IMG/VR virus record: IMGVR_UViG_3300025352_000001
Location: 1-37,315 of that record
Source of the DNA: a virus
Lineage: Duplodnaviria > Caudoviricetes
Direction: 5' to 3' (one strand)
Length of the DNA stretch: 37,315 nucleotides
Below the pieces are notes generated by a model, which did no database searches, was not told the DNA's origin, and worked only from the letters and a program-made list of their open reading frames with translations. A program made the position numbers and the translations under genes. Position 1 is the first letter of the stretch; every line of letters begins with the position of its first letter. Below, piece by piece: positions 10,916-36,309 of the stretch.

Positions 10916-10924
10916 CGACGCGAT

Positions 10925-18912: not shown

Positions 18913-21900
18913 GTGGCGCAAAACAACCCGTTCTTTCAGAACCCCCTGGACAAAGTCACCGACGATATCCTCGCGAAGAAGTACGAGCTCCCGGCGTTAA
19001 GCGGTATTCGGGCTCAGTCTGACGGGCGAATTGAGGCATCCAGGGACGTGGACGGGATTCTCCCTCCTGAGCAATATCAGCCGCTATTCATCAACGCCTC
19101 CCAGAAGTACGGGGTCCCGGCGAACATCCTCATGTCCCTGGCTCAGCAAGAGTCGTCGTACAACCCTGAAGCTATCGGCCCGGAGACGAAGTGGGGCAAA
19201 GCCAAAGGGATGATGCAGTACATTGACGACACCGCCAAGGGCATGGGAATCGACCCGATGGACCCGGCGCAGTCAGTGGATGCCGCCGCGAAGCAGTTCA
19301 AGCAAAGAATCGACGCCGGATACAGCGTTGAAGAGGCCGTCATGGCCCATCACGCCGGCGACAACCGTGAACAGTGGGGTCCGAAGACCCGCAAGTATGT
19401 GCGCGAGGTTCTGGGTCGCGCTGGGGGCATCGCTGCACGGTATCAGCCAAAAGACCCCACGGACGGTGGTCGCTACCGAGATCTGACCCCCGAGGAACTG
19501 GCCGTCTATCAGGCCAAGCAGTCCGGCATTGGCCCAAAAACTACCGATTCTGAGCCCCCGGGACTGATAGAGCGTGCAGGTAGCGCGCTCAGCGGGCTTG
19601 TGAGAGAGCCGGGCACGCGCGAGCAGATGGAGCCCACCGCCGAGCTTGGCCAGGCCGCCCGTAAGATTGCCGACGCTGGCCGACGTGGTCCGTCTCCCTC
19701 GGGCGGACGTGCTGGAGAGCCACAGGTAGATCAAGAGGTCGACGCCTTCACCGGCGCTGCCCCGAAGAACCCCGGAGCAGACCAGAAGCTCCCCCCTACC
19801 GAAGAGCCAGCCGACGAAGAGCTCGACAACAGCGGCCGTTCCCGCCTGGAAGAGCTCGAGGCCCTTGCCGCAGAGCAGCCAGAAGAAGTCGACGCCTTCA
19901 CCGGCGCAGGACCCGTCAAAACCACGACTCCGCTGGACCTCTATCGCAAAGGCATCGCGCTGCTCCAGCGTCCAGCAAGCGAGTTCGACTTCCTCACAGC
20001 CAAGATGGACGGCCCCGACAAAGACGAGAAAGACGAGAGGAGAGGACAGTTCGCTGATGCAGAGGTCGACGCCTTCACTGGCGCTGACACGAAGGCTCAG
20101 TACACGACGATCGATGGCTGGATCAAGAACCTGGTGGGTTCAGCAACGTCCGGCGTAGGCACCGCGGCGGGGTCGACTGTCGAGGGTTCTGGACTCATTG
20201 CCCAGCAGATATCGAACGACCGGAGCAACAGGAAGCTCCAGGCAGCGGCGACTCGGCTCGATAACTCTCGGACGAACTTGGGCCTCAGGCTGGAAGATGT
20301 CGAAGGTGAGGACGACGCTACGCGACTGCGTGTCGCAGAGGCGTATGCTGACGATATTTTCAAGCGCGAGAAAGAGTTTCACGCCGCTGCCGTGGAGTGG
20401 GCCAACAAGGAACCAAGCGCCGCCGCCGACTGGATTCGTGGACTTGGCGTCGACATCAAAAAACTCTCGGAGCAGTTACAGGCCGACCCCGAGTACGATG
20501 GCAAATTGACAGATGTTTCAGCAGGCATTGGCTCGATGCTGATCTACCTCGGCCCTGGCTTCCTCACGACGCTAATGACTCGCGGCGCACCGATGGCCAT
20601 CAGGCAGATCGCCGGCCTTGCTGGGGGCGCTTCCTTGGCTGGCCCCGCAGGTGCAGCAGAGGCATACAACCGGGCGATCCAGTATGGCCTACCGGAAGAA
20701 CTGGCCATCAAAACGTCCATGAAGGGTATTCCGGCCGGCATCATCCAGGTCGCCCCGCTCGCTGTCATCCTCAAGGGTGTCGCCCCCGGGGTGCGCGGCA
20801 AGGTTCTGTCCCAGTTCCGCCACATACTTGAAGTATTCGGCGCTGAGTTCGTAGCGGAGGGTGCCGGCGCTGTCATGCAAAACCTCGTCGAGAAATCCTA
20901 CAATCCTGAGAAAGGGGTTTGGGACGACTCCCTGTACCAGGCGGCGATAGGCGGAAGCTCCGCTGCCCTCATCTCTTTGGGCATCCAGATCGCCACCCGC
21001 GGCAAGGGTATCCGGCCCATGGACAAGGGTGAGATCGCAGGCCGGGAACTGGACCGCCAGGTCAAGGGCTCAGCGTGGCTAGAGAGCGCCGAAATGGAGG
21101 CGTTACGCAGGCTGGACCCCCATTCATACGTCCAGACCGTGCGCGATCAAGCAGAGAGCATCGACCCGGAAGCCGTCCTGTCTGGTGACCTCAGCGTTGC
21201 GCAGAAAACCCCGGACGGCCCGATAGAAGCCGCCGCCGCGGAGACCTCTGGTGAAGAGCGTGTCGCCAATGTCCCTGGTGAGCGCGTCACCGTGGCCACC
21301 CTAACCGGCAATATCAACGGCATCGTCAATCTCTATGAAGAGGACGGACCTGGCGAGTTCCAGGTTCAGATCCTGGCCGAAAATGGCGAAATGTACGTTT
21401 TCGACCAGAACAGCGATGTGACCATTGTTCGCACCGGCGTACTCGATGGCGAGACCACTGCCAGGCAGGGTGATGACACCACGCCCCCCTCCACCGTGAC
21501 GCCGATGGCGAACATGGACCCGATCGACACGGCAGCAGCAGAGAAAGAGCGCGAGGAAAACCCTGAGGGTCTTGATCCGGGATACAGAGGCCGTGTCGAA
21601 ACTCGTACCGGCTGGCTTGAGGATGTTGCGGAGTCCCCCGGTGACGTACAAGACCTGATCGACGCCGAAATGCAGGACGGATCGGCACCCGACCAGAGCG
21701 AAGCCAGGACGGCCTTCCTCGATGCCGCACGGTCGAAATACGACGAGCTCACCGAGAAGACTCAGAAGGACCGAGCCGAGAAGTCATCGAAAGAGAAGTC
21801 AGCTCAGGACCGGTTCCCGCAGGACCCGATGGACCGACACAAGTTCGGCACGCCAAACCCTGATGTTCGTCTCCAGGAAGGCCGCAAGGAGCGCCGTGAC

Positions 21901-24900
21901 ACGGGCCGCGGGACCTTCGTCGCTAGCCAGCCAAGCACAGGCCGAGAGCTCGCCCGCGGAACGACCCAGGAAGAGGCTTTCAGCAATGCTGAGGCCAAGC
22001 TCAAGGCCGCTTCCGAAAAGGCAGAGCCAGCCCCTGAAACCACCGAATCCGGGGAAGCTATCGTTGGCCACACCACCAAGAAGGGAAAGGACCTTCGCGG
22101 CGTGTTGCGTGACATTCCGCTGTCGAAAGCCAAGGAGATCGACCCGTCCGCCTTCCGCAAGAGCGGAAAGTCGTTTATCCGCCTCGACAGTCTCGAGAAG
22201 GCGCGCGAGAAATTGAACGCCGAGTGGGAAGCCGAGTGGGAAGAGCAGGGCGTCGAGAACCCAGAGCAGGGCGACTTTGATACCGTTGAGGTTACAGGAG
22301 GAACGCGCCAAGAGGGCCAGGTCGACAAGCCGCTGACCTATACCGGCTACAACGGTGAAGAGCGCACCGCGCTCAGCTACCAGTTGGTGGGCGACTATCG
22401 TATCGCCATGGTGGGCAATAACGTTTATGAGGTGGTCGACCCCGATGGCCGGGCCGTCAGCCAAAAAGCCACACTAGACTTCGCCGTCAAGGACGCCAAC
22501 CGCCTACAGGGGCGACGGGCCCAGCCCGAGGCCGGTGACCGGAAAGCACAAGGCGGAGTAGCCTACTCAGAAGACATGCCTCGCAGGGTACCCGACGATG
22601 TTCGTCGCCAGGGCGATGCTGAGACGAAGGCATGGTATCAGGGGTATGATAGCGCACTTGAAAGAGATCGCGCCGCCATCCCTCCCCCGGCCAACCTCAA
22701 CCCGAGTTCGGAGGCAGGAAGCCCCGAGTACCAGGAGCGGGCGAAGGACCGCCTCGAGAGGATCGCTACCGCGGATTCTGTCGGCGCGCTCAACGACATC
22801 GTAGGGGAGTCGTGGGCCGACCAGGGGCGCACGAAGTCGAGCTTCTTTGAATTGCAGACGGCCGCCACTACTCGCTGGCAGGAGCTCTACAACCAGACTG
22901 AGGGCGGCGTTGCTCCTCGTCGGCCGTACCATGATGAAGATGTCAAAAAGCCCAAGGAGGCGGAAAAGGCCCGGACGAAAACACCCGAGGTCGCGCCCGC
23001 GGCCCCGCCAGCCGCCGACGACTTCAAGGAAGGCCCCGAGCAGGCCACTCAGACGTTCCGCGACGAGGAATCTGGCGTCACCGCCCACGTCATACCGAGC
23101 AAGCAGCGTCCGAACAAGCCGTTCAAGGTGCTCGTGCTGGACGACAGCGGGAAGTCCATTGGGACCACGCTCACCCCAACCGAGGAAATGGCGACAGCCA
23201 AGGCCCGGGAGGCTGTGGGGCTGCCGGAACAGGAAGCGACCGACGACTACGACGCCAAAGCCCACAAGAAAACAGCACCAGACGATCCCGTTCCTTCCGA
23301 CTTCCCTGAAGGATTCGAGCCCTACCGGGCCAATATTCGCGGCAAGGGCGAAACATGGGCCGTACCGGCAGTGCGCGGTCAGCGTGGCGTGGGCGGCGAC
23401 ACTCTGCATGACTCCTTGGACGAAGCACTGACCCAGGCGCAGAGCAACGTGCGCCAGGAGGATCTCCAGGCGCAGAACCAACGCGACACGGACGCCCAGG
23501 TTGCCCAGGAGGGCGACAGCGAGGCAGCCCGCCAGTCCGAGCTGGCCGAGATTGGCGAGATCCTCGGAATCCCCAAGATGCGAGCAGGCCGCGCGCGCGA
23601 TACGCTGAATAAGCGGGCCAACTTCAACGGCCGAGAAATGACCCACAAGGCGCGCATCGAGCAGGTGGTCGAGCAGGGCGCGGTGATCGAAGGCGAGGGC
23701 CCCGCCCGTGAACTAGTGTTCGGCGATAACAAGGGGTATGACCAGAAAACGCTGACCAAGACCGGCATGGACTATGCTGAGGCGCTGATCGGGCGTCGGG
23801 GCCTTGCAGTGACAGCACCAGAAGACGCGGCCAAAGTGGAGCAGCTAAATCGCCTGAAAGCTGACATGAACGCCCTGGCCGACAGAGCCGAAAAAGCCGG
23901 TTATACAGAGCTGGCTTCAGATCTGCGCATGCAGTATTCAACGGTAAAACCTGTTCGTGGCGACATAGTGTTCAGAGATATTAACGCGGCCAAAGTTGAC
24001 GACATTCTTCGCGCCCGTGAGCCAGCGGTGGTTAAGGCTGAGAGAAAAGCTGCAATAGCCGCAGGAGGTGCAGCACCCAGTACCCAGGCCACCAGCGAGA
24101 CCCAAGCAACAGTTACAACGCCGGGAGGAGAGACGTTTAGGGATACACGAGGGCAGGGCGAACGGTTCCACGGCACCAACCAAGCAATCGAAGGACTTAA
24201 CTCGTATAGCTACTCAGCTCAGAACTTTTACGGCCAAGGTTTTTACACTACTGACGCAGTAGATATTGCCAAAGGGTATGGACGCAAAGGTCGTGGTGGT
24301 GAGGCACAGCTGTATACTGTGACGGTTACTGGGAGCCCCTTGCTATACGACTTAAATGCTGAGATGGATGCGCAAACACGCGCCAAGGTGGCTGCGCTGC
24401 TCGGTGACACGCTTGATTTGACAGATGGAAGCATTACTACCCTTGGCGAGGCTATGGACGCTGCGAGGGAATCTGCTGGGGACATTACACCGGCAGATGA
24501 GGTACAGGAAAGTTTTGACGCGGTAGTCGCTAGCCTTGAGGCCAGAGGGTACCAAGGCTTCCGCCATGTTGGTGGCCAGCGCACTGGCAGCCCAGCGCAT
24601 GACGTGCGTATCTACTGGACCCCGGCCGACACCCTTGAGGTGATGCCCACCGAGTTTGATGCCTACAGAGCAGACGCAGGAGGTGCAGCACCCAGTACCC
24701 AGGCCACCGACAGCCCAACTGGACAGGCAGAAGCGAGTGTCGAGGAAAAGATCAAGGCAGATAGCTGGGGTGCCAACAACACCCTGGTCACCCAAGATCG
24801 TGCCGAAATCCTACGCGCCAAGCTCCGAGCAAAGTTCGGAACCCTAAACAGCGGGTTCGACCCGGAAATGCTGGCCGCGGGTGCCGAGCTGGCAGCTTTC

Positions 24901-27900
24901 AACATGGAAGCAGGCGTTCGCAAGTTCGGCGAGTTTGCCCGCGCCATGGCGGCCGACATCGGTGTCGGTATCAACGATCTTCGACCCTACCTGAGAGGCT
25001 GGTACAACGGCGGCCGCGACATGATGGAGGACAACGGTCTCGACGTGTCCGACATGGATGGGCCGGATCAAGTCCGCGACCAAATGAAGGGCCTCTTCAA
25101 CGCCGAGGAAACGTCCGTCACGGAAGCCATGGAGGAAGCCACAGAGCGCCGTCAGGAGGCTGCAGACGACGCCGCTGGAGCAACCAGCCCGAGTGCCAAG
25201 GCCAGCGCAAACGAACGCCTCAGGGACCAGGAAGAGCGCGTCACGAAGCTCAAGGAGGAAACTCGGGAGCGCGCTATTGTCGATAGCCCTGAGGGAGAGG
25301 GCCGCACAACCCCTACTGAGAGGACTCAAGATGACACCCGAGCAGATTCAACAGATCGTGATCAATCACTGGATGACGTACTTCCGGAAGGAGACACTGC
25401 GTTTGACCCCGCAGGAGATCCAGCGCCAATCGAAGGCATCCGCCCGGCTGTCGATGAGGGAGATGGAGGCGCTCCAGGGGATCGGACTCGACCCGAAGAC
25501 GGCATGGAGCGAGGCGAGCAGACTCTTCCTGACAGCCCCGCCGTCGCCGGAGGAAATAGCGGACGAGCAGGCGGAGTTGAAGGAGGTGGACGAGCAGGCG
25601 GTGCCCGCTCTCCCTCCGCTGGCCCGGTAAACCGCACCGAGAACCGGCCCAACACCCTGAAAGGCGAGAGCCCAGGAAACTTCCGCATCACGCCGGAAAT
25701 GGGCATCGGGACAGGCACCGCCGGCCAGAAGCTCAAGGACAACATGGCGGCCATTCGCCTGGCGAAGAAGATCAAGGCGGAAGGCCGGTTCGCGACCCGA
25801 GAAGAGCAGGCCGCACTGGCCAGGTTCGTCGGTTGGGGCGGCCTGAAAACCGTATTCGACCCCAAAAAGGCCGGTAAGACTGACCAGTTCGGTCGTGCCC
25901 AGGACGAGCTCAAGGGGCTGCTCACAGCCGAAGAATACGCCGACGCCAATAGCTCAATCCAGAACGCGCATTTCACGTCAGAATCTGTCGTCGGAATGAT
26001 GTGGCGCGCTGCCCGTCATTTCGGCTTCACAGGCGGACGTGCGCTCGAGCCCACCGTGGGGTCCGGTAACTTCATCGGCATGGCCCCGGATGATTTCGCC
26101 GCGGCTACCGAGTGGTTCGCCTCCGAGCTTGATCCGGTGAGCAGCAGTATTGCCGGCCTCCTGTATCCGGACTCGACGATCCTCGAGGCCACCGGCTTCC
26201 AGGAAGCGCACTTCGCCAGCAACGTCATGGACATTTCCATCGGCAACCCGCCGTTTGGTCAGATAACCATTCGCTCCCGCTCGAAGAAGTGGAAGCACCT
26301 GGACGGGATGAAGATCCACAACTACATCATCGCAAAAGCCGGCGAGCACCTTCGCCCGGGTGGGATCATGCCGATGGTGGTTACTCACCGCTTCCTGGAT
26401 ACCGCCAACCCAGAGGCCCGCAGTGAGCTCGCCAAGAACTTTCGGTTCCTCGGCGCCGTTCGGCTGCCAAACAACGCTTTCGCTGCGAACGCCGGTACTG
26501 ACGTGACCACCGACCTCGTGTTCCTCCAGAAGCTCCGTGCCGATGAGAGCCCTGACCTTTCAGCGTCCTGGCTGAACACCAATGGCGAGATCGATGTCGA
26601 TGGCGTGAAGATCCGTGTCAATGGCTACTACCAGGAGAACCCGACCAACATCCTCGGCAAGAGCACGTTGGGCGGCTCCATGTATGCGGCGGAAGGCGAG
26701 TACACCGTAGAGAGTGATGGCCGCGATCTGGACGCCTCCTTCAACAAGATATTGGCGGAAGACTGGGCTTCTCTTGCCGGCGCGATGAAGCCGACCCAGG
26801 GCGACCTGGATGCGGCCCCGGTCTTTCTGGAGAAGAGCGACCTGGCCATCGGCAGCATGATGCTGAACGCGGACGGCCAGATCATCTATCGCGACTTGGA
26901 TGACTCCGTGGGCAACGCGGTCATCAGGCAGGTCACCCCCGAGAGCTACTGGAAGGAGAAGGCTGCCCAGTGGGGTGATGCCATCGAAGCCGTTGCAGCC
27001 ATCAAGACAGCGCGTGAGGTCGGAGATCCGGTCGCCAAGGACCAAGTGCAGGCTCTCGTCGATGCAGCTGGCGTCGCTACCACTGCCAGCGGCGGCAAGA
27101 AGCCGAAGCCGACGAAGGCCGAGCAGGCCATTTACGACGTGCTCGATGCGACCGCGAACCCAAGGTTTACCTGGAGGCACGACGACGGACTGGCCGCGAT
27201 GGAGGCCACTCTTGAGCGCCGCCGTCTTGGCCGCCAGGGCTTCGACACCCTCCGTAAGCTCCTGGACATCAGGAACCGTGCCCTTGCACTGCTCCAGGCC
27301 GAGAAGACCAACGACCCGGCCATGGACAGCCTACGCGCCGATCTCAACGTCGCCTACGACCAGTTCGTGAGCAACTACGGACTGATCTCAGAGCCCAAGA
27401 ACATTTCCCTGTTGACCAGGGACATCGGCATCGAGTCCGGACTTGAGGCCAACTACCAGCCAGAGGTCAAGGCCGCCGAGGCGAAGAGGAAAAACTCCAA
27501 GCCCAGAAAGGCCACTGCTGAAAAGCACGCCATGTTCAGCGAGCGTGTCACTTGGCCAAAGGAAGAGATCACCTCCGCCGATAACGCTCTGGATGGCATG
27601 AATATCTCGCTCTCCGAGCGCGGTCGCCTGGATGTCGCGTATATCTCGGCGCTCACCGGGCGAACAGGTTCGCAGGTCATTGAAGATCTGACCACCGGGA
27701 AGGACCCGGCGGCCTTCTACGATCCCGAGCAGCTCGATTACATTCCCTATGATGAATACCTGTCGGGTAACGTGAATCGAAAGCTCGAGGTGGCCAGGGC
27801 AGACAACCTTGAGGCGAACATTACGGCCCTCGAGAAGGCTCTTCCTGCCCCGCTGACGAAAGAGAGGATCACTCCCAATATCCGCGGCACCTGGATTCCA

Positions 27901-30900
27901 GACACCATCTTCGAGGACTTTCTCACGGCCCTTGGCGTCGTGAAGCCCAGCGTCCTGGTGCAGCCGACTATTGGCCGGATAAGCGCCAAGGATTCAGTTG
28001 CACAACTGACCGACCTTGGCACCCAGTTCGATGACGCTGATAGATCGGTCATCGACCTGTTCAACGCCGCCGTGTCCGGCAAGCCTATCCGTGTGATGCG
28101 ATCTGTCCCAGATAGCAGTCCCCGCGAGGACAAGCCGGCATCGCAGCGGGCCACGGCCAAGGCCGAACGAATGTCCAGCGTCTTCCGGGAGTGGGTCTAC
28201 AGTGAGCCTGACCGTGCAGCGGTAGTGGTCGACGCCTACAACCGCGTCATGAACACCAACCGAGAGCGTGACTGGAACGGCGAGAAGTTCCTCAAGCCGG
28301 TCGGGCAGAGCCCGTCAGTGAAGCTCCGCCGCACGCAGAAGAACGCCGCGTGGAGGATGATCCAGCGTCGCAACATGCTGATGGATCATCTCGTCGGAAG
28401 CGGGAAAACAATATCCGTCATCACCGGTGTCATGGAGCGCAAGAGACTCGGCCTGTCCCGCAAGCCAGCGATCGTGGTCCCGAACCACCTTGTCGTCCAG
28501 TGGGCCAGCGAGTTCTACCAGCTATATCCGGGCGCCAAGATACTGGCGGCCACCCCCGACGATTTCTCGAAGAACAACCGTCGCCGGATGTTCGCAAGGA
28601 TCGCCTCGGGCAACTATGACGCCATCATCATGGGTCACTCATCTTTCGGCTTCATCAGTCCGCCGGATGCCGACACCAAGATGATCATCACTGAGAACAA
28701 GGCTCAGTTGAAGGAAGCTCTCGACGCAGCCAAGGAATCCGGAGAAAGCGGTCGGTCCCTGAACCAGATTCAGGCGAAGCTCGACGCCTACGACGAGCAG
28801 CTCAAGAACCTATCTGAGCGTCCCCGCGACGAAATTGGAATCGACATCGAGTCCATGGGCATCGACTATTTGGCGGTCGATGAGTGCTTCTCTTACGACA
28901 CGGAAGTTGAGACAGATCAAGGCATGATGAAGATTGGCGACATCGTGGAAGGGAAGCTGCCTGTCAGAGTCAAAAGTGTTGATTCTTCAACTCATGCGGT
29001 ACAGTGGAAGCCAGTCACCAACTGGTACGCTCACCAGCGTCGCCTTCCATTGATCGAGGTATTCCATGAGTCAGGATCGTTCCTCTGCACCCCAAACCAC
29101 AACATCTGGGTCGAAGGCTACGGCTACAAGCGAGCCGGAGACATCGGTCCTCAAGACCGACTCATCACCACCACCGGCGCCTACTCCGAAGTCCACCAGG
29201 CGAACCCGCGTTACAGCGCCGTGTCGATGGTGCGGGACGGACATTACGTTCGCGGACAACATGCCGAGGAAATACTGCAGCGTGTCCTGCAAGATGTACG
29301 CCCAGCACCAGAACCCGGAATCGCACGCGAAATGGAAGGCCGCGATGCGTCCTACCTGGGAGAACTCTCCGCTCAAGGGCAGGAAGTACCCGGAAGCATC
29401 GGAGAGAATGACCGCCAACAACCCCATGCGCTCGCTGGAGACGCGCAAGAAAGTGTCCAGGACGCTGATAACGATGGGACACCGTCCGGTGATACGCGGG
29501 AGCAATGGGTTCCTGACAGAACCTCAAATCTTGCTGGCGGATCTCACCGGTCTGCCGACGGAAGTAGTGGTGAACACGAAATCAATCCGCCATCTGATGG
29601 ACAAGCTGCCCAACCACTACAAGATCGACCTGGCGTGCCGGGACCGGAAGCTGGCAGTGGAGATCGACGGGAATTCGCACAGAACGACGAAAGCCAAAGA
29701 ACGGGACGCGAAGAAGGACCGGGCATTGTCACTTCTCGGGTGGTCGGTATTGCGATTCTCGAACCAGACAGTGATGGAGAATACCGATTCGGTGGTCGAG
29801 ACCATTCGGTCATTTACGACATCGAGGTAGCTGACAACCACAACTACTTCGCGAATGGGGCGTTGGTCTCCAATTCCCACATGTTCAAAAACTTGGAGTA
29901 CGCCACCAGCGGCGAGCGCGTCGTCGGCATGACCAACCCGAAGGGGTCTGCAAGGGCCTTCGACCTCTACACCAAGGTCCGAGGCATCCAGGAGCGCGGC
30001 GGCGGCGCCGTGTTTGCCACCGGGACCCCGGTATCCAACTCGCTGGTCGAGCTCTACACGATGATGCGCTACCTGGCGCATGACCAGCTCAAGGAACGCG
30101 GCCAGGATCACTTCGACGCTTGGTCTGGGGCCTATGCCGTCACCGAGACGCGCATGGAGTACACCGCGACACAGAAGCTCAAGCCGCGTCGCGTCCTGTC
30201 AGGGCTTGCAAACCTGGATGGCCTTGGCCAGCTTTATCGTGACTTCGCCGACATCCTAACCATGTCCGACCTAAAGCGGGTCTACACCGAGGAAAAGGTC
30301 GACGAGAACAAGCGCACCGGAGGAAAAGAGCGCACCGACTTCCCAATTCCCAAGGTAAAGGGTGGCGGTCGCCAGCTAGACTCGGCCGGCATTACGGAGC
30401 AGCAGTCCGAGTACATGGACTACCTGGTTGCCCGCATGAAGGGTATCGAGGCGAATACCTCCAACCCGGATTACAAGAAGGTCGACAACGCTCTATGGGT
30501 GATGACCGATGCGCGGAAGATGTCTTTGGACATCCGTATCATCGATCCGCTTGCCGAGCGCGACGAGACTGGCAAGGTCATGAGGTCCGCTCGCCGGATC
30601 AAGGATATTTACGACCGCTGGGATGCCGACAAGGGCGCTCAGTTGGTATTCAGTGACCTCTCCACCCCGTCAAAGACCTCGGCGAAGGAAGCCAAGGGAA
30701 TCGTGAAGTCCGCAGCCACTCTCATCTTCGGTGAGAATCCGGGCAAGGCGGCGCTGAAACGAATCAAGGGCATGAGCTACCGGGACCAGTGGAAGTGGAT
30801 GGAATCCGCCGCGGAAAAGGCGCTCGAAGATCCGGCTATCTCCACCGAGAAGCAGGACAAGATCGAAGAGTTCATGGGCGAGAACGCCCTGGCCGACGCG

Positions 30901-33900
30901 ACAATGCTGGTGGCCGACAAGGGCTTCTCTGTTTACGACGACCTCCGGACCGTACTTGAGGAAATGGGCATCCCATCACATGAGATCGCCTTCATCCACG
31001 ATTACAACTCGCCAGAAGCGAAGGACCGCCTCTTCTCACAGGTCAACTCCGGGGCTGTCCGCGTGCTCATTGGGTCAACCGACAAGATGGGCACCGGCAC
31101 TAACGCGCAGGAGAGGCTCGTTGCGCTTCACCACCTGGACGCGCCGTGGCGCCCCTCTGATGTGGAGCAACGCGAAGGCCGTATCATTCGTCAGGGAAAC
31201 CTCCTGCACATGCGTGACCCGGATGGCTTCGAGGTCGAGATCACCAACTACTCCACCAACGGCACTTTCGATACGGTGATGTGGCAGATTCTCGAGCGCA
31301 AGGCGGCGTCCATCGAGCAATTCCGTAGCACCGGCATCGACAATATCACCGAGGACGAGGGTGATTCCGACCAGTACGCCGAATTCATGGCGACCTCGAC
31401 GGGTAACCCGATATTCAAGCTCAAGCTCGAGGCTGAGCGTGATCTGCTCAACATCCAGGCAGAGATCGGCGGCAACCTGATCGCTTCACGAAACGCGAAA
31501 GAGTTCGTCGCAAGCTACGACAGCAAGCGGGAAGAGCTCGCCGACCGCAGCGAGTACCTGAGCAGAGCCGAGGGCGGGAACATCAGCTATAACGGCGCCA
31601 CCGGTGACCCGGCTGACCTGAAGACCGCCATGGATGCCGAAAAGGCCAGGTTCCACGAGGACTTTGCCGCGTGGGAGGCCGCGATACCGGCCGCCAAGGA
31701 AGCGCGTGAAGCGGCCCGAGCCGAGGGCAAGAAGAAGCTCCCGGCTCTGCCGCCGCGCCCGACTCCAAGCGGCATTCTTTCTGACGCAGTCCAGAAGAAG
31801 AGCGCCTACGCCCGAGTGGTGAAGGCCGCCCTGGTGGAAGTTGGAATTGGTGGCGGGATGAACACCTCGAGCAAGGAAGTTGATCTCAAGGTCGGCAGCA
31901 TCGGAGTCACGGTTAGGCGGCGGGCAAACCCTTTCAATGACAACTCTAGCTACGAAGTCCTCGTAAAAACAGGCGACTCCAAAGAGGTTTCCATTGCGAG
32001 CTCACAGGTCCTTAACCCTGAAAACTCCGAGGCCCTGGCCAAGGGCTTCATGCCGGACCGGATGCAGCGAGCCATCGCCGACAGCAAGGAATCCATCGAT
32101 GGTCGAATCGAGAAGATGGACTCAAGGCTCGAGCGTGAAAAAGAGCTCGCCGCCAAGGAGATCGACAGGACCCCCATAGATGAGGCCAACCAACTCGTCT
32201 CCTGGTACACCTCCCAAGTGAGCCTGGCAGAGGAAGCCTCCGACCTGCAGCGCGGCGAGAGATCGAATCGCTTCATCGCGAAGGATCAGACCAGGGACGT
32301 GGCTCAGTTTGGGGCGAAGGAGGTCGCCGAGTCCCAGTCCTTAGAGATCGAAGGCGAGGTTTACGAGACGACCGGACTCTCAGTCGGCACAGACCGCGCC
32401 AGGATGATTGACGCCACCCGTCAGTCGGATGGTCGGCGTGCCGTTGTTTCCGAAGAAAAGGGTGAAGATGGCGAGTCCAGCTACAGCGTCAGGGTCGAGC
32501 CGGACGCAGCCATAGAGCAGATGCGGAGAGCAACGGCTCAGTCCAATGCCCGGCGCCGCAACCGCAAGCCGTCGCAGAGCCCCGCAGAGGCTGAGCAGCG
32601 CATCCGCCAGGGAAGTCTTGGCGAAGTCAGCGGTCGCCTCCTGGATAGCGGCAAGATCAAGATCGACAGCGTGCTGCCATCCGGGCTGCCCACCGGCACT
32701 GCCGCCTATGTTGACGAGCAGGGTGTCATCCACCTGGTCGCCCGCAACCTGGAGCCGCAGTATGCAGAGGCAACCTTGCTCCACGAGGCGTTCCATGCCG
32801 GAGCACGGCCTCTCATTGGGAGTCGTCGCTGGAACGAACTACAGGACCGCCTTGGCAAGCTATACAGCCAGGCAGAGCGCAGTACCGGGTTCAATCGCCA
32901 GTTTTGGGACGCCGCCCGGGAAAGGATTTCCGCCGCGGAGGCTGCCGGAGACGTGATGACCGACGCCCGCCGGATCGAGGAGTTCGGGGCCTACGCTCTG
33001 GAAGAGTTCGCGAGTGCGCCGCGTACCTTGAAGGTATGGGCGAACGACATGGTCGGACGGGTCCAGGCATGGCTCCAACGGACCTTCGGCATCCAAGTAG
33101 GCCAGGTATCGCCGGCACAGCTTCGCGCCCTGGCTGCCGCCGCTCTACGCAACGGTGATATGGCCCCTAGCCCGTCGCTTTCCGTCGAAGCGCCTATCAG
33201 TCTTGTCGATGAGAACGGCAACCCCGTGCCAGAGCGGGAGCGCAAGGCCGAGGTCGCCAGGGCGGTTCGTGCTGCCCGCAAGGCGCTCTCCGTGGTCCGC
33301 AGCGAGGCAGGGGTCACCGACTTCGATGGTGGCTTCACCAGGGACATCACCAAGATTGGTACCTGGCTACATCAGCCCTACAACATTGCGAGCCTTGAGC
33401 CGCAGTTCACGCCTGTCTTCAAAACCGCGATGCGCCAGCAGCGGTTCCGGGACACGCTCATTTCGGAAATGTACCCGAAGTTCCAGAAGTACAAGGAGCT
33501 TCGCGGAAAGGGCCGAGCCAACGTCAACAAGGTCCTCGAGCTTGGTCGCTTGGCGAACCGCTCTTTCACTGACGCGCGTCTTCGCAGCGGCCTGACCAAC
33601 CCCGGCGAGAAGAGAACTACCGTCTTCGACGCGAACGGGGAGATACAGTACCGCAACCAGACCATCCACACCGCCCTTTCTGCGAAAGGCGATGTCATCA
33701 AGTTGACCGCCGAAGAGCGGGTAGCATACTTCGAGCTCCGAGAAATGTTCGATGAAGCCCTGGACCGGTTCCGCGACCAGACGCTTATCGACATGGGCAT
33801 GGGTGAGTTTTCCGGGTCACTGAATCCGCTCAAAGACATCATGGATTCGATCACTGACGACATGAGTGACGTGGTCAAGGACCGCCTGATCAACATGGCC

Positions 33901-36309
33901 AAGATGGTCGAGGAGATCGATCAGGCCAAGCGCACCGGGTACGTCCCGCTGTCCCGCTTCGGTCGATACTCGATCACGGTCAAGGAGAAGCAGGCCGACA
34001 TCAAATACGCCAGCAACCCGGAGGGCGGGTGGATCGCCAGGGATGTCCCGGACGAGTACACCGAGCTCCTGGCCTCTGTCGGCGCCACATACGACAACCT
34101 CGAAGGGGGATGGCAGGTATCTGACGGACAGAAGAGGCAACTCAACCTCGAGAACAATCGCACCATCTACAGCGAGAAGATCGACCCTGAGAGCTATCGA
34201 GGTAGATATGACGCCTACCAGGCCGCCAGGGGCAACAAGAAGATAACGGACGTGGCCTTCATCAGGGATGCCAAGGCCAGGGTCGAGCGGGAGTGGGGTG
34301 GCGAAGGCCGGCAAATCATCACGCTGGATACCAAGCGTGCGCGTCTCGATGGGACACTCAAGCTGTCAGACATCGACAGCCTGGCAGACCTGTCTCAGAT
34401 CGACACCGAGACATGGGACCGTGTCCGCGATGAGTTCGCGAAGGCCATGCGTGGCCGCGGCTTCCGAAAGCATTTCTTCCGCTCGGATAACGTCCCTGGC
34501 TACGACCTCGACTTCGAGCGGTCTATTGCCGACTACATCGCTGGAATGTCCGGTTATCTGTCTCGCCGGCACCACGAGAACCAGTGGGAAAGCGCCGTGG
34601 CCGGCGTCAAGGGTCCGGTCCTGAACAAGTATTCAAAGGAATATCGGCAGTACGTTAACGAACCGACGGAGGAATACGCCATCCTTCGCCAGGCGGGCTT
34701 CCTCTTCTACATCGCCGGCAACGTGTCGACCGCACTGCTCAACTGGACGCAGGTGCCGATCATGACCATGCCGGCGCTGTCTCAGGTGATGGGTCACACC
34801 AGGGCCGCGAGCGAGGTCACCAGGGCATACAAGGACGCCCTGGCCATGACAAGCTTCTACGACCAGGCCCGCGAGGGGTGGGTGCGTGGCGGCCCCAAGG
34901 GGATGGGTGACTCCATGCTCCAGATGTTCGATCCGAACGACGCGCCGGCAGACGTTCGCACCGAGGTCTTTGAGGCGTGGGAGGACGGGATGTTTTCTCC
35001 GCAGTTCACCCATGAAGTGATGGGGTTCACAGGCAAGAAAGACGGGTCCCCATCGGCCGCGCTCGAGAAGGGTATCGACTATATCGCGTCGGCATACACT
35101 TACATCGAGCGCTTAAACCGCCTGGTAACCTTCATCGCCGCCGTGCGGGCAGCCAAGGATCCCAAGATTGAGGCCAAGGCTCGAGAGAACCTGAAAGGCA
35201 ATGCGCTCGCCAGGCTCAACCTCCTGGATGAAACTTGGAGCCCGAAGGCTTTCGGTGAGTTCATCGTCGACGAATCGCAGTTCATGATGGGCAAGGTGAA
35301 CCGGGCCAAAATACTTCGAGGGCCAGGGGCTCCGATCTTCCAGTTCATGTCGTTCGTGATGAACTCGCTGCAAGCATGGTATCGCTGGTCTCGAGTGAAC
35401 GGTGGGTCCGGGAAGATGGCCACCGCCTACTCCATCGGCGCCGTCGCTGCCCTGTCAGGGGTATGGGGCGTTCCTCTCCTCGACCCGCTCCGCGCCGCCT
35501 TCGAGGCACTCTGGAGGGAGATCACCGGCGAGGACGAGGACATCAAGTACAACCTCCGCGAGTGGATCTCCCGGGAGACGGGTCAGAACTGGCTCGGTGA
35601 AATCGCCGACAAGGGGGCGCTCTATCCGCTTGGCGCGGACATGAGCGGCCGTATCGGCTTTATGAATATGCTCCCTGGCACGTCATCAGTGGTCGACGCC
35701 TTGGGCATCCCGGGTGACCTCCTGCTCGGCCGTCCGTATCGCGCCACGAAAGAGATCCAAAGCGAAGACTACTGGGGGGCCGCTGCAGAGCTTTCGCCGA
35801 CCTTCGTTCGCAACATTATCACCGCTCAGAAGTGGCGGAGCGAGGGCGTAAGGAGCCGCACCGGAAGGCAGTACCTGACGCCGAAGCAGATCCCTCAGAA
35901 GGCGCTCTGGTTGAAGTCATTCGGCATCCAGCCGTCGATCGTCAGCGACGCCTATCAGTACAAATACTCCGTTTACCGCGAGCAGACCAAGATGGACGAC
36001 GCTACCGCACGTTGGGTCAACAAGATCGCCTCGGCCTACGCCGCCGAAGCCCGCAATACTGACCCGGATCGGGCGCCGGAGCTCGCCTCACGCATCGATC
36101 GACTTATCGACGGGGTTTTGGAGTACAACGCCGCCAACCCTGATTCGCCGGTGAACGTGACGAACGACAAGATCCGCAACAGGGCGAATGAGTACCTCTA
36201 TGGTCTCGGGGCGACAGCCGGGGGAGAACGCAAGTCAGCGCGGGCAGCCGCCGAGCGGGCCAGGGAGGTCTTCAACCTCAACCCTATCCTGTTCCCCGAG
36301 GAAGAGTGA
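18913..36309 (+). CDS. Giant DarB-like polyvalent virion protein (lytic transglycosylase, ART-like, N6-adenine methylase, SNF2 helicase with intein, zincin-like peptidase, PLxRFG)
   Basis: SLT: QQESSYNP..AKGMMQY. ART-like: FHGT..YGQGFYTT. MTase: LEPTVGSGNF and IGNPPF. Helicase: HLVGSGKT, VDE/SHMFKN, FATGTPVSNS and QREGRIIRQGN. Peptidase: LLHEAFH. PLxRFG: YVPLSRFGRY. Confidence 0.9.
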   Translation: MAQNNPFFQNPLDKVTDDILAKKYELPALSGIRAQSDGRIEASRDVDGILPPEQYQPLFINASQKYGVPANILMSLAQQESSYNPEAIGPETKWGKAKGMMQYIDDTAKGMGIDPMDPAQSVDAAAKQFKQRIDAGYSVEEAVMAHHAGDNREQWGPKTRKYVREVLGRAGGIAARYQPKDPTDGGRYRDLTPEELAVYQAKQSGIGPKTTDSEPPGLIERAGSALSGLVREPGTREQMEPTAELGQAARKIADAGRRGPSPSGGRAGEPQVDQEVDAFTGAAPKNPGADQKLPPTEEPADEELDNSGRSRLEELEALAAEQPEEVDAFTGAGPVKTTTPLDLYRKGIALLQRPASEFDFLTAKMDGPDKDEKDERRGQFADAEVDAFTGADTKAQYTTIDGWIKNLVGSATSGVGTAAGSTVEGSGLIAQQISNDRSNRKLQAAATRLDNSRTNLGLRLEDVEGEDDATRLRVAEAYADDIFKREKEFHAAAVEWANKEPSAAADWIRGLGVDIKKLSEQLQADPEYDGKLTDVSAGIGSMLIYLGPGFLTTLMTRGAPMAIRQIAGLAGGASLAGPAGAAEAYNRAIQYGLPEELAIKTSMKGIPAGIIQVAPLAVILKGVAPGVRGKVLSQFRHILEVFGAEFVAEGAGAVMQNLVEKSYNPEKGVWDDSLYQAAIGGSSAALISLGIQIATRGKGIRPMDKGEIAGRELDRQVKGSAWLESAEMEALRRLDPHSYVQTVRDQAESIDPEAVLSGDLSVAQKTPDGPIEAAAAETSGEERVANVPGERVTVATLTGNINGIVNLYEEDGPGEFQVQILAENGEMYVFDQNSDVTIVRTGVLDGETTARQGDDTTPPSTVTPMANMDPIDTAAAEKEREENPEGLDPGYRGRVETRTGWLEDVAESPGDVQDLIDAEMQDGSAPDQSEARTAFLDAARSKYDELTEKTQKDRAEKSSKEKSAQDRFPQDPMDRHKFGTPNPDVRLQEGRKERRDTGRGTFVASQPSTGRELARGTTQEEAFSNAEAKLKAASEKAEPAPETTESGEAIVGHTTKKGKDLRGVLRDIPLSKAKEIDPSAFRKSGKSFIRLDSLEKAREKLNAEWEAEWEEQGVENPEQGDFDTVEVTGGTRQEGQVDKPLTYTGYNGEERTALSYQLVGDYRIAMVGNNVYEVVDPDGRAVSQKATLDFAVKDANRLQGRRAQPEAGDRKAQGGVAYSEDMPRRVPDDVRRQGDAETKAWYQGYDSALERDRAAIPPPANLNPSSEAGSPEYQERAKDRLERIATADSVGALNDIVGESWADQGRTKSSFFELQTAATTRWQELYNQTEGGVAPRRPYHDEDVKKPKEAEKARTKTPEVAPAAPPAADDFKEGPEQATQTFRDEESGVTAHVIPSKQRPNKPFKVLVLDDSGKSIGTTLTPTEEMATAKAREAVGLPEQEATDDYDAKAHKKTAPDDPVPSDFPEGFEPYRANIRGKGETWAVPAVRGQRGVGGDTLHDSLDEALTQAQSNVRQEDLQAQNQRDTDAQVAQEGDSEAARQSELAEIGEILGIPKMRAGRARDTLNKRANFNGREMTHKARIEQVVEQGAVIEGEGPARELVFGDNKGYDQKTLTKTGMDYAEALIGRRGLAVTAPEDAAKVEQLNRLKADMNALADRAEKAGYTELASDLRMQYSTVKPVRGDIVFRDINAAKVDDILRAREPAVVKAERKAAIAAGGAAPSTQATSETQATVTTPGGETFRDTRGQGERFHGTNQAIEGLNSYSYSAQNFYGQGFYTTDAVDIAKGYGRKGRGGEAQLYTVTVTGSPLLYDLNAEMDAQTRAKVAALLGDTLDLTDGSITTLGEAMDAARESAGDITPADEVQESFDAVVASLEARGYQGFRHVGGQRTGSPAHDVRIYWTPADTLEVMPTEFDAYRADAGGAAPSTQATDSPTGQAEASVEEKIKADSWGANNTLVTQDRAEILRAKLRAKFGTLNSGFDPEMLAAGAELAAFNMEAGVRKFGEFARAMAADIGVGINDLRPYLRGWYNGGRDMMEDNGLDVSDMDGPDQVRDQMKGLFNAEETSVTEAMEEATERRQEAADDAAGATSPSAKASANERLRDQEERVTKLKEETRERAIVDSPEGEGRTTPTERTQDDTRADSTDRDQSLDDVLPEGDTAFDPAGDPAPIEGIRPAVDEGDGGAPGDRTRPEDGMERGEQTLPDSPAVAGGNSGRAGGVEGGGRAGGARSPSAGPVNRTENRPNTLKGESPGNFRITPEMGIGTGTAGQKLKDNMAAIRLAKKIKAEGRFATREEQAALARFVGWGGLKTVFDPKKAGKTDQFGRAQDELKGLLTAEEYADANSSIQNAHFTSESVVGMMWRAARHFGFTGGRALEPTVGSGNFIGMAPDDFAAATEWFASELDPVSSSIAGLLYPDSTILEATGFQEAHFASNVMDISIGNPPFGQITIRSRSKKWKHLDGMKIHNYIIAKAGEHLRPGGIMPMVVTHRFLDTANPEARSELAKNFRFLGAVRLPNNAFAANAGTDVTTDLVFLQKLRADESPDLSASWLNTNGEIDVDGVKIRVNGYYQENPTNILGKSTLGGSMYAAEGEYTVESDGRDLDASFNKILAEDWASLAGAMKPTQGDLDAAPVFLEKSDLAIGSMMLNADGQIIYRDLDDSVGNAVIRQVTPESYWKEKAAQWGDAIEAVAAIKTAREVGDPVAKDQVQALVDAAGVATTASGGKKPKPTKAEQAIYDVLDATANPRFTWRHDDGLAAMEATLERRRLGRQGFDTLRKLLDIRNRALALLQAEKTNDPAMDSLRADLNVAYDQFVSNYGLISEPKNISLLTRDIGIESGLEANYQPEVKAAEAKRKNSKPRKATAEKHAMFSERVTWPKEEITSADNALDGMNISLSERGRLDVAYISALTGRTGSQVIEDLTTGKDPAAFYDPEQLDYIPYDEYLSGNVNRKLEVARADNLEANITALEKALPAPLTKERITPNIRGTWIPDTIFEDFLTALGVVKPSVLVQPTIGRISAKDSVAQLTDLGTQFDDADRSVIDLFNAAVSGKPIRVMRSVPDSSPREDKPASQRATAKAERMSSVFREWVYSEPDRAAVVVDAYNRVMNTNRERDWNGEKFLKPVGQSPSVKLRRTQKNAAWRMIQRRNMLMDHLVGSGKTISVITGVMERKRLGLSRKPAIVVPNHLVVQWASEFYQLYPGAKILAATPDDFSKNNRRRMFARIASGNYDAIIMGHSSFGFISPPDADTKMIITENKAQLKEALDAAKESGESGRSLNQIQAKLDAYDEQLKNLSERPRDEIGIDIESMGIDYLAVDECFSYDTEVETDQGMMKIGDIVEGKLPVRVKSVDSSTHAVQWKPVTNWYAHQRRLPLIEVFHESGSFLCTPNHNIWVEGYGYKRAGDIGPQDRLITTTGAYSEVHQANPRYSAVSMVRDGHYVRGQHAEEILQRVLQDVRPAPEPGIAREMEGRDASYLGELSAQGQEVPGSIGENDRQQPHALAGDAQESVQDADNDGTPSGDTREQWVPDRTSNLAGGSHRSADGSSGEHEINPPSDGQAAQPLQDRPGVPGPEAGSGDRREFAQNDESQRTGREEGPGIVTSRVVGIAILEPDSDGEYRFGGRDHSVIYDIEVADNHNYFANGALVSNSHMFKNLEYATSGERVVGMTNPKGSARAFDLYTKVRGIQERGGGAVFATGTPVSNSLVELYTMMRYLAHDQLKERGQDHFDAWSGAYAVTETRMEYTATQKLKPRRVLSGLANLDGLGQLYRDFADILTMSDLKRVYTEEKVDENKRTGGKERTDFPIPKVKGGGRQLDSAGITEQQSEYMDYLVARMKGIEANTSNPDYKKVDNALWVMTDARKMSLDIRIIDPLAERDETGKVMRSARRIKDIYDRWDADKGAQLVFSDLSTPSKTSAKEAKGIVKSAATLIFGENPGKAALKRIKGMSYRDQWKWMESAAEKALEDPAISTEKQDKIEEFMGENALADATMLVADKGFSVYDDLRTVLEEMGIPSHEIAFIHDYNSPEAKDRLFSQVNSGAVRVLIGSTDKMGTGTNAQERLVALHHLDAPWRPSDVEQREGRIIRQGNLLHMRDPDGFEVEITNYSTNGTFDTVMWQILERKAASIEQFRSTGIDNITEDEGDSDQYAEFMATSTGNPIFKLKLEAERDLLNIQAEIGGNLIASRNAKEFVASYDSKREELADRSEYLSRAEGGNISYNGATGDPADLKTAMDAEKARFHEDFAAWEAAIPAAKEAREAARAEGKKKLPALPPRPTPSGILSDAVQKKSAYARVVKAALVEVGIGGGMNTSSKEVDLKVGSIGVTVRRRANPFNDNSSYEVLVKTGDSKEVSIASSQVLNPENSEALAKGFMPDRMQRAIADSKESIDGRIEKMDSRLEREKELAAKEIDRTPIDEANQLVSWYTSQVSLAEEASDLQRGERSNRFIAKDQTRDVAQFGAKEVAESQSLEIEGEVYETTGLSVGTDRARMIDATRQSDGRRAVVSEEKGEDGESSYSVRVEPDAAIEQMRRATAQSNARRRNRKPSQSPAEAEQRIRQGSLGEVSGRLLDSGKIKIDSVLPSGLPTGTAAYVDEQGVIHLVARNLEPQYAEATLLHEAFHAGARPLIGSRRWNELQDRLGKLYSQAERSTGFNRQFWDAARERISAAEAAGDVMTDARRIEEFGAYALEEFASAPRTLKVWANDMVGRVQAWLQRTFGIQVGQVSPAQLRALAAAALRNGDMAPSPSLSVEAPISLVDENGNPVPERERKAEVARAVRAARKALSVVRSEAGVTDFDGGFTRDITKIGTWLHQPYNIASLEPQFTPVFKTAMRQQRFRDTLISEMYPKFQKYKELRGKGRANVNKVLELGRLANRSFTDARLRSGLTNPGEKRTTVFDANGEIQYRNQTIHTALSAKGDVIKLTAEERVAYFELREMFDEALDRFRDQTLIDMGMGEFSGSLNPLKDIMDSITDDMSDVVKDRLINMAKMVEEIDQAKRTGYVPLSRFGRYSITVKEKQADIKYASNPEGGWIARDVPDEYTELLASVGATYDNLEGGWQVSDGQKRQLNLENNRTIYSEKIDPESYRGRYDAYQAARGNKKITDVAFIRDAKARVEREWGGEGRQIITLDTKRARLDGTLKLSDIDSLADLSQIDTETWDRVRDEFAKAMRGRGFRKHFFRSDNVPGYDLDFERSIADYIAGMSGYLSRRHHENQWESAVAGVKGPVLNKYSKEYRQYVNEPTEEYAILRQAGFLFYIAGNVSTALLNWTQVPIMTMPALSQVMGHTRAASEVTRAYKDALAMTSFYDQAREGWVRGGPKGMGDSMLQMFDPNDAPADVRTEVFEAWEDGMFSPQFTHEVMGFTGKKDGSPSAALEKGIDYIASAYTYIERLNRLVTFIAAVRAAKDPKIEAKARENLKGNALARLNLLDETWSPKAFGEFIVDESQFMMGKVNRAKILRGPGAPIFQFMSFVMNSLQAWYRWSRVNGGSGKMATAYSIGAVAALSGVWGVPLLDPLRAAFEALWREITGEDEDIKYNLREWISRETGQNWLGEIADKGALYPLGADMSGRIGFMNMLPGTSSVVDALGIPGDLLLGRPYRATKEIQSEDYWGAAAELSPTFVRNIITAQKWRSEGVRSRTGRQYLTPKQIPQKALWLKSFGIQPSIVSDAYQYKYSVYREQTKMDDATARWVNKIASAYAAEARNTDPDRAPELASRIDRLIDGVLEYNAANPDSPVNVTNDKIRNRANEYLYGLGATAGGERKSARAAAERAREVFNLNPILFPEEE
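24060..24708 (+). repeat. 34-bp perfect direct repeats (24060-24093 and 24675-24708) flanking the ART-like domain
   Basis: CGCAGGAGGTGCAGCACCCAGTACCCAGGCCACC occurs twice, 615 bp (205 codons) apart. Both copies encode AGGAAPSTQAT. Confidence 0.92.
25331..25630 (+). CDS. Nested +1-frame gene inside the giant ORF; 99-aa helical protein of unknown function
   Basis: GAGAGGA RBS precedes ATG 25331. The G/C third-position bias switches to this frame. The sequence is protein-like (MTPEQIQQIVINHWMTYF...AWSEASRLFLTAPP), while the host frame turns low-complexity. Confidence 0.72.
   Translation: MTPEQIQQIVINHWMTYFRKETLRLTPQEIQRQSKASARLSMREMEALQGIGLDPKTAWSEASRLFLTAPPSPEEIADEQAELKEVDEQAVPALPPLAR
28885..29874 (+). 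mobile_element. Intein (330 aa) in helicase motif II
   Basis: Begins CFSYDTEV (block A), has CTPNH (block B), and ends VIYDIEVADNHNYFANGALVSN followed by Ser+1. Removal restores AVDE-SHMFKN. Confidence 0.95.
29066..29830 (+). CDS. Overprinted Zn-finger + DUF559/Vsr-like endonuclease in the +1 frame of the intein (putative homing endonuclease)
   Basis: GAGGT lies 5 nt before the ATG. Motifs are CRWC..YCSVSC, NNPMRSLETRKKVS (NUMOD3-like) and YKIDLA...LAVEIDGNSH...DAKKDRAL..LGWSVLRF. Confidence 0.88.
   Translation: MSQDRSSAPQTTTSGSKATATSEPETSVLKTDSSPPPAPTPKSTRRTRVTAPCRWCGTDITFADNMPRKYCSVSCKMYAQHQNPESHAKWKAAMRPTWENSPLKGRKYPEASERMTANNPMRSLETRKKVSRTLITMGHRPVIRGSNGFLTEPQILLADLTGLPTEVVVNTKSIRHLMDKLPNHYKIDLACRDRKLAVEIDGNSHRTTKAKERDAKKDRALSLLGWSVLRFSNQTVMENTDSVVETIRSFTTSR

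Follow-up and report, generated by a model that had tools for sequence, protein, structure and literature searches.

The helicase gene, its intein and the nested reading frame

The DNA analysed here is a stretch of 37,315 nucleotides of the virus record IMGVR_UViG_3300025352_000001 (Caudoviricetes), and "the window" below means this whole stretch. All window coordinates refer to its plus strand, on which a single gene (18913..36309) encodes a DarB-like polyvalent phage protein of 5798 amino acids (list of open reading frames, ORFs; phrog_10089, E<1e-200). The helicase Walker B motif of this protein is split after Asp-Glu by an insert of 330 codons (28885-29874), which we describe as a contiguous class 1 intein, and nested in the insert, in the +1 frame, is a second ORF of 254 amino acids (29066..29830) for a putative homing endonuclease of the Vsr/DUF559 fold (DUF559 E=2.1e-16 in Pfam). 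The host frame is uninterrupted over its 5798 codons, intein included.

Class 1 inteins have Cys or Ser at position 1, a TxxH motif in block B, an Asp in block F, a terminal Asn, and Cys, Ser or Thr as the following (+1) residue; a penultimate His is usual in them, not obligatory. The insert stands directly 3' of the Asp-Glu codons of Walker B or motif II (28879..28884, of which base 28884 is unlike the empty allele presented below), begins with Cys, ends in LVSN and is followed by Ser; its diagnostic residues are C1, T69/H72, D312, H319, S329, N330 and Ser+1, and it is an in-frame insertion missing from homologous alleles at this locus. Both ends pass the NCBIfam cut-offs (TIGR01445, 29.2 vs 24.5 bits; TIGR01443, 25.1 vs 15.6), the N-terminal Hint part with blocks A and B (TIGR01445) covering 28885..29184. 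The middle, 29185..29725, is an open linker in which Pfam finds no nuclease domain in the intein frame, which sets it apart from the canonical intein with an in-frame endonuclease. The downstream flank that moves with the intein and supplies the Ser+1 nucleophile (29875..29883) reads Ser-His-Met here and Ala-His-Leu in the empty allele. A single-sequence fold of the intein frame was uninformative even for the Hint parts (mean predicted local distance difference test score, pLDDT, 37) and therefore gives no evidence of a disordered linker. The gene is not a fractured one, with the host in two ORFs and the intein in split halves, as the host frame is open throughout. Taken together, these sequence features indicate that 28885-29874 is likely a self-splicing intein in a phage DarB-like helicase.

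The ATG of the nested ORF lies within the codons for His61-Glu62 of the intein and its TAG within those for Val315-Ala316, the ORF thus covering block B (T69, H72) and block F up to V315, D312 included. Its first 40 or so codons (29066..29185; pLDDT 44-64) form a passenger leader shaped by block B. They are followed by a Cys4 zinc-finger-like segment (29222..29290; C53, C56, C71, C75) with weak likeness to YacG, L24e and zf-FCS, and by the catalytic domain (29498..29827; E166, D188, E199, D201, H205, D214), recognised by fold match and conservation; a conserved helical segment is present in the nuclease family's N-terminal part. An AlphaFold model based on a 25-sequence alignment reached a mean pLDDT of 83. 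When residues 146-254 of the model were searched against 48,161 chains, the matches included 3hrl (Z 12.4), the homing endonuclease I-Bth0305I (3r3p; Z 10.7, root mean square deviation 2.4, 88 aligned) and Vsr (1cw0; Z 10.0), while Foldseek on the model gave no match at E<=0.001, the best being weak (E 0.02). The sequence profile is nearer to DUF559 (3hrl, E=2e-11) than to 3r3p (E=0.003). The spacing of H205 and D214 equals that of H213 and D222 in I-Bth0305I, and the C-terminal Vsr fold with its Glu, Asp, His, Asp set is that of the EDxHD nucleases, a residue correspondence drawn from the His-Asp spacing and not from residue-level superposition. From model and sequence, the 254-residue product is likely a Vsr-fold nuclease, predicted to act as a homing endonuclease.

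The first-pass annotation of this stretch had described Hint motifs on both sides of a middle without nuclease, a nested ORF overlapping splicing blocks B and F, and a third-position G/C bias that moves to the +1 frame in mid-intein, and these descriptions hold (for the last, see the windowed composition below). Its reading of the +1 ORF stands for the GAGGT/ATG start, the Cys4 finger and the DUF559 domain but not for a NUMOD3-like segment, which was a likeness by eye: no NUMOD motif matched in Pfam at E<=0.01 in 25 family members. That both frames stay open for 765 nt is correct as a fact. As evidence the length of the +1 ORF was rejected, since +1 stretches of 208 and 185 open codons occur elsewhere in this GC-rich host gene, the one at the nuclease having 258; the case for the nuclease rests on homology and selection, because ORF length alone is weak in such a gene.

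Family-wide conservation and frame-specific selection

The search with the nuclease found 27 protein homologues, 24 of which were aligned, and in several of them the C-terminus is intein block F read in +1. For DNA we took, of 307 viral relatives that were confirmed, the best 80 and added 4 of 40 phage records, 5 metagenome loci (the window's own contig was dropped) and 24 genome loci; with L001 removed as a duplicate of L034, the resulting set comprised 94 high-scoring loci and, as controls, 18 distant DUF559 loci. In 91 of the 94 loci the host frame is open and contains the nuclease in the +1 frame, and the nuclease is in-frame or +2 in none; the three exceptions are a locus whose contig ends inside the element (L043), one that is split (L078) and one in which the nuclease is free-standing (L042). 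An intein N-block is seen in 90 of the 91 (L018 is cut by the contig start), and intein blocks are found in 0 of the 18 distant loci. Since the intein profiles were built from the same loci, their matches are not an outside test; a regular-expression check and the reading of the flanks agree with them.

These counts decide whether the present copy could have begun as an in-frame intein nuclease that compensating frameshifts, or errors of assembly, have put out of frame, an outcome that the first-pass annotation had itself named as fatal to its reading. No relative among the 94 has the nuclease in-frame, and no indel relative to the window occurs in 8 metagenome runs (parts of the intein are covered in 6 of them), so that this explanation can be regarded as already refuted. 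An in-frame fusion would be impossible without loss, because the nuclease's last helix overlaps block F, and a search for in-frame fused nuclease-inteins, in which 7995 candidates of 490-2000 amino acids were scored, gave none at E<=1e-10, which counts as weak evidence.

Dereplication left 76 elements, window included. All of them begin with Cys and are inserted at Walker B or at most three residues after it (right after Asp-Glu in 68, two or three residues later in 8). In the 72 with a located end the +1 residue is Cys (66) or Ser (6), and the nuclease stop falls within the last 23 intein codons in 72/72. Across the 76, E166 is conserved in 93% and D188, H205 and D214 in 100%, where H205 was part of the viral search pattern while D188 and D214 were in none of these patterns. 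Of 71 listed N-exteins, 44 were scanned for host families: 31 gave matches to SF2/SNF2 helicases, 6 to AAA+/clamp-loader-like proteins, and 7 had no match. Similar inteins sit in distant hosts, the window and L093 being 59% identical in Hint and 58% in nuclease but 27% in the exteins; between the window and L087 the intein is 56-76% and the exteins 63-67% identical. Standard annotation had been said to miss the gene. This applies to four of four phage records (phi673, CP-T1, Vibrio phage 1.194.O and MR14), none of which has the nested gene annotated, but one homologue, P0005, is named by NCBI, showing that some pipelines do call it. In phi673, a phage of Corynebacterium glutamicum, the family member sits in the helicase gp43.

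Some members are worth recording for themselves. In six loci (L031, L054, L059, L062, L068, L081) the element sits at the Walker B motif of a phage gene of the AAA+/clamp-loader-like kind, and the cyanobacterial dnaX intein uses a site of this type. Nine host genes (L008, L012, L020, L029, L038, L044, L048, L054, L077) contain a further intein-like block, the second or third, and in L039 (2821-3891) the usual block F stop is lost and the nuclease frame runs about 90 codons into the C-extein.

Selection was compared between the frames by the ratio of nonsynonymous to synonymous change (pN/pS), uncorrected, among ten close relatives; the values are contrasts and not rates, because synonymous sites are near saturation. 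The host frame gives 0.54 in the N-extein, 0.38 in Hint before the ATG and 0.40 in the block B overlap (hence 0.38-0.40 over 28885-29154), 0.97-1.25 in the middle, 0.96 in the C-terminal overlap, 0.09 in blocks F/G and 0.51 in the C-extein. The +1 frame gives 0.93-1.26 up to block B (1.26 over 29065-29154, where the host frame has 0.40), 0.45-0.56 over the body of the nuclease and 0.31 at its end. Selection therefore changes frame across the element, the +1 frame being under purifying selection in the nuclease and the host frame outside it. Base composition changes over 29185-29784, where G+C at the third host codon position drops from 0.58-0.84 to 0.34-0.58 and G+C at host position 1, which is nuclease position 3, climbs to 0.72-0.82. 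The two-frame element, with a conserved +1 frame under purifying selection as first proposed, is thus confirmed as real and not an artefact.

Near the 3' end, 29726..29830 encodes the last strand and helix of the nuclease together with the intein strands that lead into block F. From a level of about 0.72-0.78, synonymous change drops there to 0.37 (+1 frame) and 0.19 (host frame), with less change at all three codon positions, which fits a dual-coded stretch constrained in both frames; a recent exchange of this segment may be an alternative.

The host frame is also actively kept open over the nuclease. When the codons of the window nuclease were shuffled synonymously the host frame stayed open in about 1% of 500 trials, with 4.3 stops expected over the linker and 0 seen; family-wide shuffles, on elements that had been chosen for an open host frame, gave about 10 expected stops per element against 0 seen. 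The +1 layout is preferred because in it every host-frame stop depends on a T in the wobble position of a nuclease codon, where a silent change is always available, whereas a +2 layout would bring unavoidable host stops at Met-[IMTNK] in 72 of the 76 nuclease proteins. Common descent adds to this preference.

Empty alleles, translation and mobility

We compared the window with 8 of 14 listed runs from related lake metagenomes; X6 has a study code separate from that of X1, and gaps in runs of low depth, such as that of X7 in the intein, were not taken for absence. Two of the eight, X1 and X6, hold an empty allele with the same ten letters. The flanking contigs in X1 end at 28883 (depth 23.6) and start at 29884 (depth 24.2), and two paths join them, the intein path (depth 15.4) and a 70-base contig (depth 11) with ten other letters, AGCGCACCTT, these contig depths not being allele frequencies. 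X6 has the same joint with the same AGCGCACCTT, while in X2, X4, X5 and X11 the full form is seen, at one junction or both. Translated, the empty allele reads DEAHLFKN and the window exteins DE|SHMFKN. A second pair is given by L087 (full) and L115 (empty), whose exteins are 95-97% identical over thousands of bases: at +1 the former has Ser (TCC) and the latter Ala (GCG), with two further changes just upstream, and Ala stands at +1 in 10/10 intein-free homologues. The moving unit is therefore the intein plus a short flank that brings the splicing nucleophile Ser+1. Since the unit includes this replaced flank, the joined exteins, which had been proposed as the cleavage substrate, are not the natural empty substrate; the latter differs over ten bases and has Ala at +1. 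No convincing palindromic target like that of I-Bth0305I was seen in either empty allele, judged by eye only, and no mini-intein allele was seen at the locus in the eight runs. Downstream, at 30043-30126, five silent substitutions in 84 bases define a minor X1 haplotype (depth 5.7 vs 18.9), one of which recurs in X7; a conversion tract or a second strain is possible.

How the nuclease would be translated has to be judged from its start. Five nucleotides 5' of the ATG at 29066, apart from which the nested ORF has no ATG, GTG or TTG ahead of its zinc finger, is a Shine-Dalgarno-like GAGGT (29056..29060) formed by intein Glu-Val codons. The ATG is built from a CAT His codon in 10/10 close relatives (9 at the same column), in whose exteins CAT makes up 18-55% of His codons, and GAGGT precedes it by 5 nt, from the same codons, in 7/10. 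Across the family a first ATG with a Shine-Dalgarno match of at least 5 bases occurs in 22/76 members vs 96/1516 control +1 ATGs (p=5e-9). A sigma-70 promoter scan of 28600-29900 found 0, with 0.5 expected. The sequence around the start thus suggests that, as originally supposed, the nuclease likely has a translation start of its own within the host message.

Ribosomes might instead reach the nuclease by a programmed frameshift (+1, at some point from 29054 to about 29220), which would fuse it to the N-extein and the N-terminal half of Hint. The same-strand +1 layout, the lack of constraint in the first 40 or so ORF codons and the missing strong Shine-Dalgarno sequence in many members speak for it, and Shine-Dalgarno-like sequences can also promote frameshifting. 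However, the ATG-forming CAT and the GAGGT at start-type spacing are conserved among close relatives, Shine-Dalgarno matches are enriched over control ATGs, a simple scan of 29041-29260 gave two short runs (CTTC, CCCC) with no conserved shift site seen, and the fusion would here drag along 3300 host residues. We consider such a frameshift very improbable.

The states in which related inteins are found bear on what the nuclease may do. An intein-first search gave 78 loci, 59 of them distinct (30 of 49 candidate ORFs were scanned), in a sample biased towards +1 Vsr elements because the query was built from them. Among the 59, 28 have a +1 Vsr nuclease, 12 an in-frame LAGLIDADG (one weak), 3 an antisense NUMOD4-HNH and 1 a +1 HNH (L144); 4 are mini-inteins, in 3 no nuclease was found and 1 is cut off, while in 7 the host frame closes after about 100-120 codons, with a +1 HNH in 3 and a TnsA-like nuclease in 1 (the C-half of these is Pfam-confirmed only in L164). 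The mini-intein L169 equals the full L167 (96-99% identical) minus 184 codons and looks like a later in-frame deletion. Free-standing relatives of the nuclease are L042, beside a helicase-like ORF (read by eye), and L204, on a Deinococcus plasmid; they support insertion of an existing gene into an intein. The earlier term "overprinted" is consequently the wrong way round, because such relatives exist and it is the middle of the intein frame that is unconstrained and carried along.

Other layouts were met on the way. L078 (2700-3800) is a split version with the N-half ended by three TAA stops, a +1 nuclease and the C-half back in the host frame. The contiguous intein of L144 (2784-3557) lies in a likely terminase, judged by flank motif, and its +1 HNH-like ORF is just under the Pfam cut-off. 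The antisense NUMOD4-HNH ORFs are at L126 (2747-3502), L162 (2660-3646) and L168 (2759-3415, minus strand). L127 (2721-3800) has a broken intein frame at Walker B and a +1 ORF with a TnsA-like catalytic domain that shares the N-terminal arm of the Vsr family (hhalign 95.6%), likely a domain swap.

The nuclease might instead be a parasite of the intein, cutting nuclease-free mini-inteins or a site elsewhere than the insertion point, with the full/empty polymorphism due to ordinary recombination. In favour of this, different nucleases (+1 HNH, antisense HNH, TnsA-like, LAGLIDADG) occupy the same linker, indicating repeated invasion, mini-inteins exist, and the Hint-nuclease correlation is weak. 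Nevertheless, insertion is restricted to Walker B across SF2, SNF2 and AAA+ hosts, the free-standing L042 adjoins a helicase-like gene, and the mini-intein L169 looks like a later deletion, with no mini allele in the eight runs; we think this account unlikely. Alternatively, the present copy might be inactive, silent or non-cutting, and vertically inherited, the empty allele arising by loss through recombination with an intein-free relative. The G+C of the intein (56%) is near that of the host (61%), and the similar divergence of intein and exteins from L087 is consistent with long residence; but conserved catalytic residues, start, Shine-Dalgarno sequence and stop are all intact, the decayed members L132 and L169 look different from the window copy, and an empty target coexists, all of which makes inactivity quite improbable.

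We therefore favour, with considerable though not complete confidence, the reading that a phage helicase here carries a mobile intein and that the predicted homing endonuclease of this intein is encoded apart, by a +1-frame gene with a likely start of its own in the host message; the element is probably an active homing element. The host gene would be read through the intein, the Hint halves folding around a junk linker of about 190 residues and splicing by means of the imported Ser+1, which would restore the DExH motif. Ribosomes may also begin at the GAGGT/ATG of 29066 and produce the 254-residue Vsr-fold nuclease with its zinc finger and helical DNA-binding arm. During a mixed infection this nuclease would cleave the empty allele in the Walker B codons or right next to them, and repair from the full allele would copy the intein with its flanking codons, converting Ala to Ser, a conversion that would permit splicing and likely block re-cutting. 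Gain or loss of the intein could each account for the two alleles at this locus, the direction being one that we infer. The arrangement likely arose when a nuclease gene that had stood by itself entered a small intein, from whose codons it took its start and stop.

Several points weigh against this reading. The penultimate intein residue is Ser329 in place of the usual His (among 72 members, 27 end in SN and 43 in HN), and the family sample is incomplete, as stated above. Hint and nuclease distances correlate with rho 0.19 vs 0.47 for Hint and extein, on short alignments, and the unit is therefore not strictly co-inherited over long times. A strong Shine-Dalgarno match is absent at the first ATG of 54/76 members, a predicted hairpin may pair the GAGGT of the window, and the start-codon counts are not independent because close relatives share ancestry. 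The empty-allele anchors are short (30/30 and 24/160 letters, under the 31-letter bridging rule), and X1 is possibly the window's own source.

The window record, which is 63% complete, has the gene content of a phage (portal, major head, internal virion, tail and endolysin genes). The 5798-residue protein contains SLT (at the N-terminus), methylase-like, SNF2 helicase and PLxRFG regions, with weak ART-PolyVal/DUF3990 matches, below cut-off, at about residues 1752-1812; elsewhere, at 9674-13588, two tail-fibre-type genes have in common a similar N-terminal anchor domain. Judging from the neighbour genes and from P1 DarB, the protein may be packaged in the virion. Uncoupling of the nuclease from so large a virion protein, formerly offered as the reason for the layout, cannot explain it, because most relatives are in ordinary helicases or clamp-loader-like ATPases.

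Comparison with known systems

The layout is not unprecedented: out-of-frame intein nucleases are already published by Gosselin 2025 and Phillips 2026 and, reportedly, by Gorbalenya 1998. The general kind is therefore known, while a same-strand +1 Vsr family at Walker B was not found published. Neither such a family nor an imported +1 residue was met in the literature consulted, although supplements and subscription papers could describe one.

A close relative in organisation is the cyanobacterial dnaX intein, with an overlapping-frame ("+2 ORF") LAGLIDADG nuclease, putative Shine-Dalgarno motifs, frame-dependent dN/dS (nonsynonymous to synonymous rate ratio), a disordered in-frame middle and coexisting empty, mini and full alleles (Phillips, DeSimone, Gogarten, bioRxiv 10.64898/2026.09.14.751524); its site is directly after Walker B according to the portion available of PMC4760082. 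Our element is likewise contiguous, with an alternative-frame nuclease, frame-dependent selection, coexisting alleles and a Walker B site. It differs in having a Vsr/DUF559 nuclease instead of LAGLIDADG, in occupying many phage helicases and ATPases instead of one cellular gene, and in the imported +1 residue, none being reported for dnaX (10.64898/2026.09.14.751524). The same preprint calls the layout rare, whereas at least 76 non-redundant cases are counted here.

Inteins of actinobacteriophages have been described whose other-frame ORFs are LAGLIDADG (antisense), VSR-like (antisense) or endonuclease VII (frame 3) (Gosselin, Arsenault, Gogarten, bioRxiv 10.1101/2025.01.02.630785), and as far as the available text of that preprint goes they too are contiguous phage inteins with an other-frame nuclease, VSR-like/EDxHD included, for which invasion by a free-standing nuclease is the proposed origin. 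The features by which that work and Phillips 2026 recognise alternative-frame inteins are all found here: a contiguous frame with an intact other-frame ORF, +1 purifying selection and patchy presence. By the same text, however, the VSR-like ORF there is antisense and the same-strand type is endonuclease VII in frame 3; the hosts are polymerase, minor capsid, terminase and thymidylate synthase genes, not helicases or ATPases; and the ORFs "typically lie outside" the splicing domain, where ours stop in the last 23 intein codons. Our antisense NUMOD4-HNH inteins are not among the four types in that portion.

Two further systems share parts of the element. I-Bth0305I, an EDxHD homing endonuclease encoded in a group I intron with recA as target and NUMOD2 repeats (PMC3239194, consulted in part), has in common with the present nuclease the C-terminal Vsr-fold domain, an N-terminal DNA-binding region and the His-to-Asp spacing; unlike it, ours carries a Cys4 finger and a helical arm and is closer in sequence to DUF559. 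The ShiLan element is an out-of-frame HNH hidden in an open phage gene insertion, and, in what was available of PMC11855218, has the third frame, no splicing domain and no ribosome-binding site, unlike the +1 Vsr intein described here.

One may tentatively propose, with confidence slightly short of even, that the same-strand +1 Vsr inteins are a large unannotated family that targets Walker B, jumps between unrelated ATPase families and, to create a splice site, rewrites the catalytic motif of the host from DEAH to DE[S/C]H; that theirs is maybe the commonest state in one phage intein lineage; and that free-standing, contiguous, split and mini forms record the path of nuclease gain and gene fracture. 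Many "long-linker" phage inteins scored as nuclease-free may be fully mobile. The imported nucleophile suggests that inteins can colonise sites without a native one by bringing it with them, and the natural empty allele with matching flanks, usually missing from such reports, gives tests of cleavage and homing a defined substrate.

Finally, Vsr-like nuclease genes between split intein halves are known from fractured genes (Dassa et al. 2009, PMC2677866). The portion of that paper available to us describes a Vsr-like nuclease gene that stands on the same strand between the two intein halves and overlaps the C-intein at its 3' end, as in our element, and L078 has that layout. The host frame is broken in two there and open here, an open state that is missing from their Figure 5; within the same portion of their work, the contiguous +1 state is an addition to the model for the origin of split inteins.

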